IMG/VR virus record: IMGVR_UViG_3300038465_000039
Span: 25,261 to 89,260 of that record
Length of the DNA: 64,000 nucleotides
Strand: one strand, 5' to 3'
Source: a virus
The position numbers and the translations under genes are program-made. Position 1 is the first letter of the stretch; each line of letters starts with the position of its first letter. Shown here piece after piece: positions 45,073-55,173 of the stretch. The notes under the pieces are model-generated. The model made no database searches. It had not been told where the DNA came from and was given only the letters and a program-made list of their open reading frames with translations.

Positions 45073-45693
45073 ATGAAGATTGTTACACTAGTCGAGGCTC
45101 GCAATACCCTGTCCAAACGGTATTTTACTGGAGTCCCCTGCAAGCGCGGGCACATAAGCGAGCGCAGAACGAGCACAAGGGCTTGTATCGCATGTTCCAG
45201 TTTCCATCGAGAGCAGAACGGTGATCAACACCGCTTTGCATCGCGAAGATGGGCTGCAAATAACAAGGAACGCGGAAAAGCTAACGGCATTAGGTGGCGG
45301 GCTGAGAACCGAGACTTAGTTAAACAAATAAGGCGAAATTGGTACGCTCTAAATTCCGCAAAGTGCGTGGCTGCCACCTTAGAATGGGCGAAGAAAAACC
45401 CGGAGAAGCGAAGCGCCACTGAGCGCCGACGCAAGGCGAGGAAGCGCGCCGCCGGGGGAAATCATACTGCCGACGATGTCGTTGAATTGTACAGGCTACA
45501 GCGTGGCAAGTGTGCTCATGCGTGGTGCAACGTATCCCTAAAACCTGGTTATCATGTTGACCACGTTCAGCCGCTAAAACGCGGCGGATCGAATGATCGG
45601 TCTAACATTCAGTTGCTTTGTCCTAGTTGCAATGTTCGGAAAAGCGCATCTGACCCGATTGAGTGGGCGCAGCGTCATGGACTCTTGTTGTAG
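45073..45693 (+). CDS. HNH homing endonuclease
   Basis: YFTGVPCKRGH; HVDHVQPLKRGGSNDRSNIQLLCPSCN. Confidence 0.9.
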   Translation: MKIVTLVEARNTLSKRYFTGVPCKRGHISERRTSTRACIACSSFHREQNGDQHRFASRRWAANNKERGKANGIRWRAENRDLVKQIRRNWYALNSAKCVAATLEWAKKNPEKRSATERRRKARKRAAGGNHTADDVVELYRLQRGKCAHAWCNVSLKPGYHVDHVQPLKRGGSNDRSNIQLLCPSCNVRKSASDPIEWAQRHGLLL

Positions 45694-46497
45694 ATGGCTA
45701 CGATCAGACGGACGAAGAAAACTCAACTCAGGCCAGTCCGTCCCAACGTCGGGATCATGCTGGCCTATCAAAAAAAACTTGATCGCTTGATCACTGACAT
45801 GCAAAAGTCTGTCGCTTTCCATATTCGAGCGGCTTACCGACAACATCCTCCATCAATGGCGCTTGACGATGCATTGCCAACCAATGCTCTGAAGAGGGTT
45901 ATAGAAACTCTCAAAAAACGTTGGTTAAAACAGTTCTCTGACGCCGCACCGAAGCTGGCGCAGTATTTCGCGACCGCGGTCAACAAGCGTACCGATGCTT
46001 CGCTGAAAAAGATATTGCGGGACGGCGGATTCTCAGTCCGCTTCCAGCAAACGCAGGCCATGAAAGATGTCGTCAAGGCCACGCTTGAGCAGAATGTGTC
46101 GCTCATCAAAAGCATACCTGAACAATTCTTGAAGAACGTCGAAGGCGATGTTTTCAGATCGATCCAGCGTGGTCGCGATCTCGGCGGTCTGACGAAGGCG
46201 CTCGAAAAGAACTATGGTGTCACACATCGGCGTGCGGCCTTCATCGCGCGTTCGCAGAACAATCTCGCAAGTGGTGCGATGACCGCGGTCAGATTTACCG
46301 AGCTCGGAATCGATACTGCCAAATGGCGCCATTCAGGCGGGGGCAAAACTAAAAGGCCCAGTCACGTTGCGAACAACGGAAAGACCTACAAAGTTTCTAC
46401 CGGCTGGTACGACCCCACTGTCAAGAAATTCATAGTTCCTGGAGAGCTCCCGAACTGCAGATGCGTGGCGATTCCAGTCGTCCCCGGATTCTCGTGA
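45694..46497 (+). CDS. MuF/SPP1 gp7-like head morphogenesis protein
   Basis: NVSLIKSIP, RAAFIAR.Q, RPSH...G, PGELPNCRC. Confidence 0.9.
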   Translation: MATIRRTKKTQLRPVRPNVGIMLAYQKKLDRLITDMQKSVAFHIRAAYRQHPPSMALDDALPTNALKRVIETLKKRWLKQFSDAAPKLAQYFATAVNKRTDASLKKILRDGGFSVRFQQTQAMKDVVKATLEQNVSLIKSIPEQFLKNVEGDVFRSIQRGRDLGGLTKALEKNYGVTHRRAAFIARSQNNLASGAMTAVRFTELGIDTAKWRHSGGGKTKRPSHVANNGKTYKVSTGWYDPTVKKFIVPGELPNCRCVAIPVVPGFS

Positions 46498-46620
46498 TCT
46501 GGCTTTCGTAGTTCGACCGGCGGAAACAAACCGCTGTCGACCCAAAGTGGGCGAGGGTACCGTTTCATCCACGAGCCAGCGCACATCTGTTGGCCCGATG
46601 CATGGTCAATACAGACCGAT

Positions 46621-46645
46621 GGAACAAATAAAACTCTGGCGCATT
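46621..46645 (+). promoter_or_regulatory. EcfG/sigma-T-type promoter
   Basis: GGAAC-N16-CATT upstream of a small membrane protein gene. Confidence 0.55.
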
Positions 46646-46676
46646 GCCTCGGCTTAACCCCCGGAGGATTACGTCG

Positions 46677-46838
46677 ATGGGTCTCATCATCCTGATACTG
46701 GTGCTGCTGTTCTTCTTCGGTGGTTTCGGAAACTACGGCGGTCGCGGTCAGTTTTACGGTGCCGGTGTCTACGGTGGTGGTGGTCTCGGTTTGATCGTGG
46801 TCGTTATCCTGATCCTTGTTTTGCTCGGCAGATTTTAG
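46677..46838 (+). CDS. Small Gly-rich membrane protein (DUF3309-like)
   Basis: GGAGG RBS; two hydrophobic helices, GGGGLGLIVVVILIL. Confidence 0.7.
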   Translation: MGLIILILVLLFFFGGFGNYGGRGQFYGAGVYGGGGLGLIVVVILILVLLGRF

Positions 46839-47103
46839 GAGTCGGCTATGGCAAACATCGGTCTGATCTTCCTGGCGTTCGCGTTCGTGTTCGCTTGCTT
46901 TTACACCTTCGGAATGAAGCAAATCGGCCGTGCCGACGTGCTCGGCTTGGTGCTTGCCTTCTGGATTGCAAGCGAGTTGATCGGTGCCTACCCTCGATTG
47001 TTTCATTGACGCGCCGGGATCGAGCGTTCTCAGCGATAGTCCGATATTACCTCCTGCGGAGCCGATGCCCCCTAGCATTTGCCGCGGATGCTGATATAAG
47101 GAT

Positions 47104-47367
47104 GATCTTCCGCAAGGGGTCGTAGAGCCTTCCCCTAGGTCGTAGCCAGTTTTCCGGTATCTGGCGCAACACAATACGACCGAAAACAGAAACCGGCGCG
47201 CACGTTGCCTCCATAGAGGGACAGAAGCGCGACATTTCGAGCCACCCCCGTAACGGTCGCAAGGCCAGAGGCGGGGAATGTTGGTCACCGACATGCGGAT
47301 CGAACGGTGACGGGTTTAGCGTCGATCACGTTTTGTAGAGGCCTCGACTTTACAGTCGGGGCCTTTT
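47104..47367 (+). ncRNA. Candidate structured non-coding RNA
   Basis: Extended -10 TGATATAAG (47092-47100), many nested helices, two possible pseudoknots, terminator at 47339-47367. Confidence 0.55.
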
Positions 47368-47396
47368 GCTTGTCGGGATTGCGGAGATCGCTTGTC

Positions 47397-47756
47397 ATGG
47401 CAAAGCTGGTCGTCCTGAACCGTCACTATTGGCCGAAGGGCGGCTACGGTCACTGGTGCCCGGGCTGCAACTCCGGGCACGAGATCAACGTCGACCAGCC
47501 GAATTCGTCGGGCGCGAAGTGGTCGTTCAACAACGACCCGCGCAAGCCTACCTTTTCGCCGAGCATCAACATGCGGGTGAACACGCAGGACATGGGCGAG
47601 CACTATCAGCCCGACATCGGAAGCACGGTCTGCCACTACTTCATTCGCGACGGTCACATCCAGTACCTCGGGGACTGTACGCACGAATTGAGGGGCCAAA
47701 CTGTCGATCTGCCGGACATGCCGCCCAATCAGTATCTTTCCTGTGCAAGGCTGTGA
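47397..47756 (+). CDS. DUF6527-like protein, copy 1
   Basis: WCPGC...WSFN...PTFSPSI...CHYFIRDG.I..L.DCTH. Confidence 0.75.
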   Translation: MAKLVVLNRHYWPKGGYGHWCPGCNSGHEINVDQPNSSGAKWSFNNDPRKPTFSPSINMRVNTQDMGEHYQPDIGSTVCHYFIRDGHIQYLGDCTHELRGQTVDLPDMPPNQYLSCARL

Positions 47757-48049
47757 CGTGAGTTCGCGCAAGGAATTGCTGCAAGCTGCCGGTGTCGTCG
47801 GCATCATGATCGCGGTGATGCTGATAGTGGTATTTATCGCGCGGAGATTTGTCTGATGTTGACTGTCCGGAAGAAACGCATACCAGCAAAAGGCTTTTCC
47901 GGGTTGGTCCGATACGGTCAAGCACGCCATGCGATGTATTGCGGATGGGCTTCCAATCTGCGGAAACTGGCTGCCCAATGTTCCAAGACCCATCTTGAGC
48001 AAATGCAGCAGCGTGCCTACATGCAGCGCCAATTTCGTCCTGTGCACTG

Positions 48050-48376
48050 ATGCAGGTCAGCCCGATACTCCGCAAGACTGTCACCGGACATGCGCACTGG
48101 TGTCCGGCGTGCGAGCAGGTCCACATCCTGCCGGACAGTTGGAAATTCAACGGCGATGTCGACAAGCCGACGTTCTCGCCAAGCTTCAAGCATACGCTGG
48201 TCGCACGGGCACCGCTGCACGGTCCTGATAATTTTCGGATTTGCCACTACATCCTGACCGACGGCAAAATTCAGTTCTGCCCGGACAGTTGGCATAAGCG
48301 TTCGGATATTGTATCGATGCCGCTGCTCCCTTCTCCTCACGAGGACGACGGGTTTCCGATCGAGACGCAGGACTGA
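48050..48376 (+). CDS. DUF6527-like protein, copy 2
   Basis: WCPAC...WKFNG...PTFSPS...CHYILTDG.I.FC.DSWH. Confidence 0.75.
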   Translation: MQVSPILRKTVTGHAHWCPACEQVHILPDSWKFNGDVDKPTFSPSFKHTLVARAPLHGPDNFRICHYILTDGKIQFCPDSWHKRSDIVSMPLLPSPHEDDGFPIETQD

Positions 48377-49726: not shown

Positions 49727-51652
49727 GTGCCAGTAAAATCTGCGGCGCAAAATCGGGCAATGTGGGCCGCAAGAGAAGGACGCTCGACTTTGGGAATCCC
49801 CAAGTCTGTTGCGAAGAAGTTTGTCGGTCCATCTGCCCATGACGCAGCCGGTGCCAAGATCGCTGCCGGGATCATCTTCGTTTCGCCTGATGGTGATGTT
49901 CTGCTGCTGAAGCGTGCCGGCGAGGAAGGCGTCGACAACTACGTCGGACATTGGGCGCTGCCTGGTGGTGGTGCTGAGGATGGTGAGACGCCGGAGCAAT
50001 GCGCGGACCGAGAAGCGGCCGAGGAGCTCGGCGGAGCGGCGCCGGTCGGACGCAAGCGTCTGGTCGACCGCAAGACGACACCGAACGGGATGGTGTTCCA
50101 TACCTTCGCTCAGCAGTCCGACAAGTTTACACCGAAACTGAACGAGGAGCACTCGGCCTTCGGATGGTTCCCGCTCAATGCTTTACCGGGGCCAGAAAAC
50201 GATCATGCACCGGAACCGATGCATCCCGCCGTCAAGGCGGTTCTATCGGATGGCCTCGGGATGGCTCAGGACATGTCGCCCGAGGACTGGACCGCACTGC
50301 GGGAGAACTTCGCAAAGTGGACCCGCGAGGAAGAAGCGGAACCGGAGCATGCCGGGGACGTGAATGCGGTGGTCACGACCGTCCGCAACGATGAAGGCGT
50401 GATCCTGCTCGATACTTCGGATGGCAAGACGGTGGAACTTGGCCGGGGACTCGCCGACGACAACCAGCCGCAGCTCGCCACCACGGGGAACACAGGCATC
50501 CCACTGGCGGCTTGGAACAAGAAGCGGAAGGCAAAGATCGCTCAGGATGCCATTTTCCGGGCCTGCGGAGGCCAAGGATGCGTTAAATGTGGTGGGTCCG
50601 GGGTATCGCCCCTGACCAAGGCACCAATGAAGCCCGGGCTCGGTGGGGCTTTTGATGCCTTGTCACCCGCCATCGCCGCTTGGAACCGGATGGCAGACGC
50701 CGAAGCCGCGCGCGCCCGCAAACCGAATGCCTGCCCGATCTGCGGCGGTACCGGTGAGCTCGCCGGGCCCGGCATCATCTGCGATGAATGCGGAGGCTCA
50801 GGCCTGATCGCGCAAGACAGCCGCAAGGCACCGGAACACACGCTGCTGGTGCGCTACGACGGCGATTTCAGCTTCAAGGGGCTGCTCGCACATCTGAAAC
50901 GGCTTGGTTCGATCGGGGCCTCGCGCACGATCGAGGCGCGCGACGAAGACGACAAGATCGTGCCGTTCGGTTGGGATGGCGACGGCGCCGACAAGATTTG
51001 GGATGCCGAGATAGACGGCGAGAAACTCGCGTTTGATCGCGCGGCGGTGTCTGGCGTTGAGCGCCATGGTCTAGCATTTGACCGCGCGCCGGATAGCGCG
51101 CGCAAGTTCGATGCTGACGGACGAATGCATGTCGAAGTTTCCAATATTTCGCGCGCAGCAGTTAACCCGTATTTAGGTCGAGAAATACCTTCATACAAAT
51201 CGCTCGGTCTTGATCCGGATAAAATCTATCATTTGCTTCGCGATCCCGAGGAACTTCAAAAAGCCGTTCCGACATTCAACAATCTGCCGCTGCTTGACGA
51301 GCATGTGCCGGTTTCAGCAGCAAGCCATCGACCCGAGCATGTCATCGGATCACTCGGCACGGATGCTGAATTCGACGGCGAATTCTTGAAGAATAGCCTC
51401 GTCGTCTGGACGGAACGCGGCATCAAAGCAATTGAGAGCGAGAAGAAGCGCCAAATTTCATGCGCCTATCGCTATACGCCGGTGCTCGAAACCGGCGTAT
51501 TCAAGGGGCATCCCTACTCCATAAAAATGACGGCCATAATCGGAAATCATGCCTGCATAGTGCCCGAGGGGAGGGCTGGCGACATGGTGATGGTTGCGGA
51601 TGGAGCTCTTGATCCTTGGGCTTTGGTAGAATCTGCTATTTTAGGTCTATAG
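49727..51652 (+). CDS. Polyprotein: Nudix hydrolase, small modules and DUF2213 putative prohead protease
   Basis: Nudix box GGAEDGETPEQCADREAAEELG; ISRAAVNPYLGREIP, LLRDPEEL, ISCAYRY, NHACIVPEGRAG. Confidence 0.85.
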   Translation: MPVKSAAQNRAMWAAREGRSTLGIPKSVAKKFVGPSAHDAAGAKIAAGIIFVSPDGDVLLLKRAGEEGVDNYVGHWALPGGGAEDGETPEQCADREAAEELGGAAPVGRKRLVDRKTTPNGMVFHTFAQQSDKFTPKLNEEHSAFGWFPLNALPGPENDHAPEPMHPAVKAVLSDGLGMAQDMSPEDWTALRENFAKWTREEEAEPEHAGDVNAVVTTVRNDEGVILLDTSDGKTVELGRGLADDNQPQLATTGNTGIPLAAWNKKRKAKIAQDAIFRACGGQGCVKCGGSGVSPLTKAPMKPGLGGAFDALSPAIAAWNRMADAEAARARKPNACPICGGTGELAGPGIICDECGGSGLIAQDSRKAPEHTLLVRYDGDFSFKGLLAHLKRLGSIGASRTIEARDEDDKIVPFGWDGDGADKIWDAEIDGEKLAFDRAAVSGVERHGLAFDRAPDSARKFDADGRMHVEVSNISRAAVNPYLGREIPSYKSLGLDPDKIYHLLRDPEELQKAVPTFNNLPLLDEHVPVSAASHRPEHVIGSLGTDAEFDGEFLKNSLVVWTERGIKAIESEKKRQISCAYRYTPVLETGVFKGHPYSIKMTAIIGNHACIVPEGRAGDMVMVADGALDPWALVESAILGL

Positions 51653-53543: not shown

Positions 53544-53721
53544 CCGAGCGACGCGGCTTCCTCCGCTCGTTCGTCGCAGCCTGTCCGTTTGAGCCCACCC
53601 CTGTCCCGACGGGCAGGCTGCGTTAATTCAACAACCCTCTTTCCTTGATTGGATCGGGGGATTTTTTACATTACACTGCTCCCGTTCATTGCCTGATAGG
53701 CAGAAGGGGATCAGCCAAAAA

Positions 53722-54087
53722 ATGTCAATCACAGACGCATACTTTGCCGGATTGATCGACGGCGAAGGTCACATCACGTTAGAGAAAAGGTCTGGTAAAC
53801 AAGTCGGGACTATCCCGCTCATTCAGGTTGGCATGACTGATCGTGCGATTGTGCAGTTGCTCCAAAAAACTTACGGCGGAAGTTTTGCAGCAAAGAAGAT
53901 AAGAGAACCCTACAAGCAGATGTTCGTTTGGCGCGTGAAGCATGCACAAGCTCGCGTTACTTTGAAACGAATCCTGCCATATCTTCGCGTAAAACGTGAG
54001 GTTGCTCTTACCGTCTATAAATTCGCGTGCGAACGACGTGCATGGATTAGACAAAATACCGGTCGGACGAATTCTATCTCTGTCTGA
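53722..54087 (+). CDS. Single-motif LAGLIDADG endonuclease, free-standing
   Basis: AYFAGLIDGEGHI...ILPYLRVKR. Confidence 0.85.
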   Translation: MSITDAYFAGLIDGEGHITLEKRSGKQVGTIPLIQVGMTDRAIVQLLQKTYGGSFAAKKIREPYKQMFVWRVKHAQARVTLKRILPYLRVKREVALTVYKFACERRAWIRQNTGRTNSISV

Positions 54088-54120
54088 TCCGAACTCATCG
54101 ATTCCACCTGAAGCCAAGTG

Positions 54121-54148
54121 GCAGCACGAGTTTCGTGCTGCTTTTTTT
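54121..54148 (+). terminator. Intrinsic terminator
   Basis: GCAGCACGA-GTT-TCGTGCTGC-TTTTTTT. Confidence 0.75.
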
Positions 54149-54186
54149 GTCCCTCTTTCCGCAACATCAATCAGGAGAAAATTCCC

Positions 54187-55173
54187 ATGACGGACTTTCC
54201 AAACCAGGTCAACGCCTCGCAAGCACCCGGCGTAGCCGGTGACTTCGCATCGGCCAATCCGCGCAGTACCGTTCTGGCGGGCGAAGGTGCCCTGATTTCC
54301 GGTCTCGGTGTCATCAATGGCGCCACCGTACAAGGTGCTGTCGTCGGTCGCTTCGGTTGGTTGACCTATCAGACGATCGACAACGATAATGCTCCGGGCA
54401 CCGTCAACACCTTCGGCAGCGGAGTTCCACAGGGTCTTGTGGCCCGAAGGCAGGTCGGTCTGATCACGCAGTATCTCGGTACATCCGTTTTCTACTTCCA
54501 GTCCGGATTCCAGATCGCGCTCTACAACGAGGTGGATATGTGGGTGACGAACAACGGTGCCACCGCCGCTCAGGTCGGCCAGAAGGCGTTTGCGAGCTAT
54601 GCCGATGGTTCGGCCTCGTTCGCGGCTGCTGGCTCTACTCCGGCTGGTGGTTCCGGTTCGGCCTCGTCGATCGCAGCAGAAACCGCCAACTCGCTGACCA
54701 GCACCATCGTCGGCGACATCTTCACGGCAATCGGGACGCTTACGGGCAACTTCTATCCCGGCAGCATTCTGAGCGGTTCGGGGGTTGCCACCGGGACACA
54801 GATCGTCGCTCAGGTGCTGCCGCTGCTCCCCGGCGAGGCCCTGAACGGCCTCGGTCGATATGAAGTCAATATCCCCGAGCAGAACGTCACATCGACCACG
54901 ATTACCGGTACCTACGGTCTGTTGACCGTTGGCGGTACGGTGGTGAACGGATTCGGTCCCGGGCAGACCGTTAGCGGTTCCGGGGTCACGTCTGGCACCG
55001 TTATCTTCCAGCAACTCACCGGTACTGCGGGCGGAGCCGGAACTTACGTGGTCAGCCCTTCCCAAACCGCCAACTCGACCGCGATCACTGCCGCTGGTTC
55101 GATCGAGACGAAGTGGTACGCCAGGTCGGCGGGAGCCGTCGGCGAGATCATCAAAATCTCGAACATCCAGTAA
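54187..55173 (+). CDS. Head decoration/auxiliary capsid protein
   Basis: FPNQVN..QAPGVAGDFASANPR start; immediately upstream of the major capsid gene. Confidence 0.7.
   Translation: MTDFPNQVNASQAPGVAGDFASANPRSTVLAGEGALISGLGVINGATVQGAVVGRFGWLTYQTIDNDNAPGTVNTFGSGVPQGLVARRQVGLITQYLGTSVFYFQSGFQIALYNEVDMWVTNNGATAAQVGQKAFASYADGSASFAAAGSTPAGGSGSASSIAAETANSLTSTIVGDIFTAIGTLTGNFYPGSILSGSGVATGTQIVAQVLPLLPGEALNGLGRYEVNIPEQNVTSTTITGTYGLLTVGGTVVNGFGPGQTVSGSGVTSGTVIFQQLTGTAGGAGTYVVSPSQTANSTAITAAGSIETKWYARSAGAVGEIIKISNIQ

Follow-up and report, generated by a model that had tools for sequence, protein, structure and literature searches.

A conserved terminator-leader block and a variable noncoding body upstream of a DUF6527 gene in a peat-metagenome phage

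Among the head genes of a phage from peat metagenomes, an intergenic region of about 260 nt (47104-47367, + strand) precedes a gene of the DUF6527 family. A preliminary description of this DNA had read the region as a single structured noncoding RNA with its own promoter, its own terminator and two possible pseudoknots. We asked whether the region behaves as one such RNA when its fold is compared with chance and its sequence with relatives, and, if it does not, which of its parts is the selected element.

Gene neighbourhood of the candidate region

The window, the whole 64,000-nt stretch of DNA that was analysed, corresponds to bases 25261-89260 of an 89,260-bp IMG/VR virus record (IMGVR_UViG_3300038465_000039) that is 92% complete. 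Near-identical DNA was found in peat and freshwater metagenome runs. Twenty sequencing runs contain the stretch or a part of it, none of them recorded as RNA, and the matches have no bearing on expression. The source is a peat-metagenome phage, and it has no cultured close relative, because the best matches of its capsid protein fall below 50% identity. The candidate lies among its head genes, inside a 387-nt gap between an ORF for a 53-aa small membrane-type protein (46848-47009) and the DUF6527 gene (47397-47756; PF20137, Pfam E 2.8e-11), which confirms its placement directly upstream of a DUF6527-like gene. Neighbouring genes are all on the + strand. On the upstream side, an HNH endonuclease gene (45073-45693; Pfam E 7e-12) and a MuF-like head protein gene (45694-46497) are followed by a small membrane-protein ORF matching Pfam DUF3309 (46644 or 46677 to 46838) and by the 53-aa ORF. 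The DUF6527 gene is the first of a downstream array, and its protein has 700 homologues at E <= 0.001, the closest of which (P0001-P0010) share 69-95% identity with it. A second DUF6527 gene identified by Pfam (48050-48376), a NUDIX/DUF2213 protein gene (49727-51652) and the protease, scaffold and capsid genes all lie downstream.

Within the gap, an intergenic stretch (47041-47103) that contains a weak candidate promoter of the sigma-70 type leads into a body consisting of a 5′ part (47104-47239) and a 3′ module (47240-47336). The body is followed by an intrinsic (Rho-independent) terminator (47337-47367) and by a conserved leader (47368-47399) that carries two copies of GCTTGTC, a GGAG ribosome-binding site (47383-47386) and the ATG. 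BLAST and nhmmer searches of the 89,260-bp record with 47010-47396 returned only the region itself, which is thus single-copy.

Several other segments of this part of the genome are absent from L025, the closer of two related phage records. The block 46642-46985, which holds the DUF3309 and 53-aa ORFs, is missing as a unit from L025 and from a Logan peat contig (X4 record 1), where 46641 is joined to 46989; judged from this pattern, the two small-membrane-protein ORFs appear to be optional cargo of the head module. The HNH gene lies inside a block without alignment to L025 (44762-45762), between portal-side genes and the MuF-like gene, and is probably an optional endonuclease insertion. A further indel in this plastic region is a 188-nt stretch (47859-48046) that extends from a small transmembrane ORF to the second DUF6527 gene and is missing from L025. 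Farther downstream, a low-G+C ORF (53722-54087) has LAGLIDADG matches at E 0.007, below the Pfam cut-offs, and is followed by a clean terminator hairpin (54121-54141); the next head-module ORF begins 47 nt farther on, with its ATG at 54189. The surrounding 502 nt (53668-54169) are missing from L025 in their entirety. They resemble the insertion of a free-standing homing endonuclease, with which a second terminator may have entered the head operon.

Helices, coding potential and fold strength

Every helix named in the preliminary description could be read in the sequence, and ViennaRNA recovers most of them. The 5′ part contains a short helix (47115-47119/47132-47136), followed by GGTCGTA (47138-47144) paired with TACGACC (47175-47181), a helix that encloses GCCAG (47145-47149) and CTGGC (47161-47165). 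The loop sequence CCGGT (47154-47158) of the latter has a complement, ACCGG, at 47192-47196, as the first proposed pseudoknot requires. Immediately downstream, CGCGC and GCGCG (47197-47201/47227-47231) enclose CCTC and GAGG. ACATTTC (47232-47238) pairs with GGAATGT (47276-47282) through one G-U pair and surrounds the GGTC-GCAA-GGCC hairpin, and GTCACCG (47286-47292) pairs with CGGTGAC (47305-47311), its loop GATCGA being complementary to TCGATC (47322-47327), the partner named for the second possible pseudoknot.

The region is noncoding, because most of the six reading frames carry stops and the 7 base changes that separate the window from L025 would alter 4-6 amino acids in every frame; the earlier statement that no credible ORF is present is thereby upheld. 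Nor does the region belong to a known RNA family. A search of the whole window with Rfam 15 (4227 models) gave no match at the gathering score, and three permissive Rfam scans of the region returned chance-level matches only (E 2.2-9.1), all far below thresholds; the best of these was to the terminator-like stem ctRNA_p42d (E 2.2; it scored 15.7 bits where the gathering score is 50). ARAGORN called no tRNA or tmRNA gene.

Compared with shuffled sequences, the fold of the complete region (47104-47367) is more stable than expected on the + strand (z -3.0) and less markedly so on the - strand (z -1.56). The + strand value is due to the terminator hairpin (about 47337-47367), which by itself reaches z -6.3. 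The 233-nt body (47104-47336) gives z -0.92 on the + strand and -0.13 on the - strand, and thus does not show the folding energy expected of a new structured noncoding RNA. Its parts differ somewhat: the 5′ part (47104-47239) gives z -0.84, or -2.2 when its first helix is left out (47136-47239), and the 3′ module (47240-47336) gives -1.96 on the + strand and +0.77 on the - strand. Three 7-bp Watson-Crick stems were reached by 108 of 1000 shuffles, and one 5-bp complement between a loop and downstream sequence was reached by 81 of 400 shuffles, two by 7 of 400. Apart from the terminator, the observed structure is therefore not beyond chance.

One sequence feature of the body is mildly unusual. 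GGTCGTA occurs three times within 64 nt, directly at 47118 and 47138 (20 bp apart) and inverted at 47175, and three non-overlapping copies were reached by 178 of 5000 body shuffles. The window as a whole contains 10 copies of this heptamer against 3.8 expected, with no second cluster of this kind.

Variation among relatives

Only two related phage records were found, L025 and G003/L037. The former is a mosaic relative, 85-97% identical to the window in aligned blocks and without the HNH gene region; the latter is a record of 95 kb with 64-78% identity in the aligned genes. L025 keeps the 5′ half of the body and lacks about 100 nt (about 47240-47336), which in the window carry the second pseudoknot and two of the four helices. 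Two Logan contigs from two further runs (X4 record 2 and X6 record 8) have the same short junction, at which the loose ends are the end of the preceding helix. A further Logan contig (X5 record 5) carries the long form, spanning 47142-47352 with one difference. The 3′ module is thus a presence/absence polymorphism. Both forms are nearly unchanged in several peat and freshwater runs, from which it follows that the body is not decaying quickly. In G003/L037, the promoter-like stretch (about 78% identical) is followed by about 55 unrelated nt with one hairpin and then by the terminator and leader, so that the whole body is missing; the GGTCGTA cluster is likewise absent, and a single inverted pair, GGTCGCC/GGCGAC, is found instead. 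The body accordingly measures about 235, 135 and 55 nt in the window, L025 and G003, respectively. The proposal of one conserved RNA of about 260 nt is not supported by this comparison: its 3′ 100 nt or so are an indel, and in G003 nothing of its body is left.

The shared 5′ part differs between the window and L025 at seven positions, all within 47186-47237, and 46989-47185 is identical. We considered this 197-nt run as a sign of constraint and rejected it, because it ranks only seventh among 18 identity runs of at least 80 nt in 9534 aligned columns; the six longer runs (232-532 nt) lie elsewhere, in what we take to be genes. Four of the seven changes fall in the region of the CGCGC/GCGCG helix, where one converts a U-G to a C-G pair, another two are located in the hairpin loop and the last in an internal loop. 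All four spare or improve pairing, for which we roughly estimate a chance of about 0.03-0.06, and they offer a suggestive but weak hint of structure. L025 is the sole body homologue in the searched data, and its seven changes include no two-sided compensatory change and the one U-G to C-G conversion.

Searches for further homologues were made from both the nucleotide and the protein side. Two exact body patterns gave no match in viral contigs, and a degenerate pattern combining the hairpin loop with its pseudoknot partner returned 17 metagenome loci, only one of which (L025) was real. A covariance model of the 5′ part, run over 66 sources, matched the window and L025 alone, and 47010-47400 had no match in the "phages" collection in distant mode. 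Protein-anchored searches yielded 1, 1, 1, 15 and 45 loci, among which only L037 was similar, and that in part. L037 was the single partly similar locus among the 45 viral loci anchored on DUF6527, and the 18 other protein-anchored loci, including 15 genome loci at 41-53% identity, showed no similarity to the body. At a locus whose DUF6527 protein is 68% identical (L002), a transglycosylase-like gene abuts the DUF6527 gene with no noncoding gap, and the MuF and DUF2213/NUDIX anchors gave one distant locus each, neither similar to the region. Bacterial genomes were sampled around a Bradyrhizobium locus, a centre that reflects a guess at the host clade. Eight of 401 genomes in the order-level sample had matches, all of 23-57 nt and, with per-genome E values of 5.5e-4 to 7e-3, no better than chance, and the class and family samples had none at E <= 1e-4 in 401 genomes each. 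Within the searched data, the body is very rare.

The terminator behaves differently from the body. Our own hairpin scan placed it at 47337-47367, with a 13-bp stem, a 4-nt loop, a folding energy of -20.8 kcal/mol and the tail TTTTGCTT; the promoter/terminator scan, which applies a stricter T-run rule, did not list this hairpin. As a G+C-rich stem-loop with a U-run on the + strand and a z of -6.3, it has the features of an intrinsic terminator, and on this point the preliminary description was right. The window, L025 and L037 have the same core. Terminator and leader together are 96.7% identical over 61 nt in the window and G003, compared with 64-78% for aligned genes; at a background of 78%, a binomial estimate puts the chance of such identity at about 4e-5 per 61-nt window. 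The two GCTTGTC copies of the leader, 22 nt apart and flanking the ribosome-binding site, form a pair that is unique in the window and was matched in none of 100 shuffles. Beyond the terminator, the three sequences share no consistent leader fold. The leader and its ATG recur in L037 (block at 968-1033), where they open a different ORF, of no Pfam family, with the DUF6527 gene coming next. A terminator-like hairpin was present within 500 nt upstream in only 1 of 43 other DUF6527 loci, in a scan that began 500 nt upstream and so excluded the terminator of L037 itself; no general tie between DUF6527 genes and upstream terminators was found. The block might serve as the binding site of a regulator or mark a border of recombination.

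The promoter is less clear. CTAGCA (47072-47077) and TATAAG (47095-47100), separated by 17 nt, match 8 of 12 consensus positions, with a -10 element that lacks the final T. A promoter scan of 46500-48000 reported no promoter-like site, this candidate included. The counterpart in L037 reads TTAGCA, 17 nt and GGTAAG, so that the spacer is the same and the -10 is not kept, and 47041-47103 is about 78% identical to L037 844-919, no more than the gene background of 64-78%. The "own promoter" is a weak candidate, a pair of hexamers at a suitable distance. The terminator and translation-start block is the best-conserved piece of the locus, because in the three phages the body varies and the promoter-like stretch is kept no better than genes. 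The broader view of the region as a structured noncoding RNA of about 260 nt is accordingly right as to its noncoding nature and its genuine + strand terminator; the body itself is absent in part or in full from the relatives and folds no better than shuffles.

Readings of the locus and comparison with known systems

We tentatively favour, with a probability of about 0.45, the reading that selection acts on the terminator together with the leader of about 30 nt, its ribosome-binding site and the start codon, and that the body is filler at a mosaic junction. The selected element before the DUF6527 gene array would then be 47337-47399, and 47104-47336 (about 235 nt) would be fast-changing noncoding filler where the MuF-like head gene meets the downstream head genes. 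This filler could act as the 3′-UTR of the optional membrane-protein cargo, as a leader transcribed from the weak promoter near 47072-47100, or as both. Most of the transcription that enters or begins there would end at 47367, and the terminated RNA would be about 260 nt long in the window, compared with about 160 nt in L025 and about 75 nt in G003. Its helices would not be individually selected, and the downstream head genes would presumably be reached by read-through or by an antitermination. We prefer this reading because the relatives do not conserve the body (some 100 nt are missing in L025, the Logan contigs carry the short junction and G003 has 55 or so unrelated nt) and no further homologue of it was found beyond L025, because its z of -0.92 is ordinary and the -6.3 of the terminator is not, and because 11% of shuffles match its stem count and 20% its pseudoknot potential. 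The junction is also plastic on both sides, with optional ORFs upstream and a different first gene in G003; the 61 nt of terminator and leader stand at 96.7% against 64-78% for genes; and the 197-nt identity run with L025 is nothing special. Several observations count against the filler reading, namely the z values of -2.2 and -1.96 for sub-parts of the body on the + strand only, the pairing-sparing changes, the threefold GGTCGTA, the persistence of both forms, and the position of a terminator amid a head-gene operon, which needs explaining and for which no Q-type antiterminator family was found.

An alternative is that the unit is an independent moron-like sRNA gene, in which a weak constitutive promoter would drive a trans-acting RNA of about 260 nt with a modular body and a kept terminator end, acting by base pairing or by binding a protein. 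We regard this as possible but rather doubtful. Hexamers with a 17-nt spacer followed by a strong terminator are found in both the window and L037, and the unit stands alone in L025, where there is no ORF between it and the MuF gene. One Logan contig (X9 record 11) has different upstream DNA that meets the region precisely at 47040, the point at which the upstream ORF of L037 stops; + strand folding bias in sub-parts and substitutions that spare structure would also suit such a gene. Prophage sRNAs with conserved 3′ and variable 5′ parts at moron sites, as described in PMC4104026, provide a precedent. Presence and absence of parts are seen, together with a terminator and a putative promoter. 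That promoter, however, has only 8 of 12 positions, escaped the scan and has an unconserved -10, and the body does not fold more stably than shuffled sequence. Morons are usually explained by expression in a lysogen, which is unsupported here, since no tyrosine integrase family was found in the record, which is 92% complete. The terminator-leader block, moreover, is conserved as far as the ATG of the gene that follows, and this points to a role in cis. A related idea, which we consider improbable, takes the 5′ part common to the window and L025 (the GGTCGTA/TACGACC helix with its pseudoknot and the CGCGC/GCGCG helix), with the 3′ module of about 100 nt as an optional add-on, for a structured phage sRNA of a new class with its own promoter. 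Competition between the GGTCGTA copies could let it adopt two conformations, and its targets may be host or phage functions connected with the DUF6527 genes, whose products resemble the BubE peptidase.

A role in cis could also take the form of a leader of the DUF6527 operon, such as an attenuator, a riboswitch-like element or a put-like antitermination RNA, in which folds of the body govern the terminator at 47337. The order of a structured leader, a terminator, 30 nt, a ribosome-binding site and an ATG would suit such a device, the two direct GGTCGTA copies (47118 and 47138) could compete for the single TACGACC (47175), and the 16 nt at 47117-47132 can pair with the 5′ arm of the terminator at -15.4 kcal/mol in the window and -17.7 kcal/mol in L025. 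This pairing is nevertheless no better than that obtained after shuffling the body, with p values of 0.19 for the window, 0.05 for L025 and 0.23 for L037. An aptamer would be expected to be conserved alongside its terminator, whereas in G003 the terminator is kept with an unrelated 55-nt body; Rfam gave no riboswitch or leader match, and just 1 of 43 other DUF6527 loci has a terminator-like hairpin upstream. With no sensor conserved together with the terminator and p values of 0.05-0.23 for the pairing, the region does not classify as a riboswitch or attenuator, and we think it quite unlikely to be one. Least likely of all, and very improbable in our judgement, is a DNA-level control region in which the GGTCGTA copies are sites for a phage regulator just downstream of the promoter and the RNA helices a by-product. 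Three copies in 64 nt (178 of 5000 shuffles) and 10 against 3.8 expected in the window would fit, but the repeat is only 7 bp long, its significance is modest and was judged post hoc, the window has no similar cluster elsewhere, and G003 lacks the cluster, having only the one GGTCGCC/GGCGAC inverted pair.

If the filler reading is true, the locus is a case of phage mosaicism in which a conserved terminator and translation-start block marks a swap site for small genes and filler; this would aid the annotation of this phage group and is not surprising. DUF6527 has been described as the BubE serine peptidase of bacterial ubiquitination-like (Bub) operons, which removes ubiquitin-like conjugates (2024 preprint, 10.1101/2024.11.21.623953), and the phage copies might counter such a system. 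Should the body be an expressed structured RNA tied to DUF6527, it would offer a way into the timing or regulation of possible counter-defence genes by phages.

Transcription of the protease, scaffold and capsid genes farther downstream would have to pass the terminator. In phage lambda, the PR′-tR′ leader (the "6S" transcript) is read through under Q antitermination. The present locus is similar in that a promoter, a short noncoding transcript and a strong terminator would precede late structural genes reached by read-through. It is unlike lambda in lying inside the head module and not before lysis genes, and its promoter is putative; a Q antiterminator family protein (PF06530) was not detected in the 92%-complete record. 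A T7-like RNA polymerase family had no match in that record either, nor in any control genome, which makes the latter search uninformative.

The PeSL promoter/terminator cassettes of T4-like phages, as outlined in PMC4122927 (see also PMC2839356), occur in many copies per genome and have a composite terminator-then-promoter order. The block shares with them the character of a small conserved stem-loop regulatory sequence that borders indels and gene swaps between close relatives and may be a point of homologous exchange. It differs from them in being single-copy in the 89-kb record and in its order of promoter-like stretch, body and terminator, and we do not class it as a PeSL.

A further parallel is that with the prophage anti-sRNAs at moron sites (the AsxR/AgvB group), which PMC4104026 describes as RNAs of 51-60 nt that bind Hfq and are encoded downstream of PR′ in lambdoid prophages; the same source credits the term "moron" to Juhala et al. 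2000. Unlike these, the candidate RNA would measure 75-260 nt, lies in a head module and shares no sequence similarity with them, in a record where integrase and Q families were not found. Like them, it is a short unit with a promoter-like site and an intrinsic terminator at an insertion-tolerant spot between conserved phage genes, and its 3′ end is conserved while its 5′ part varies.
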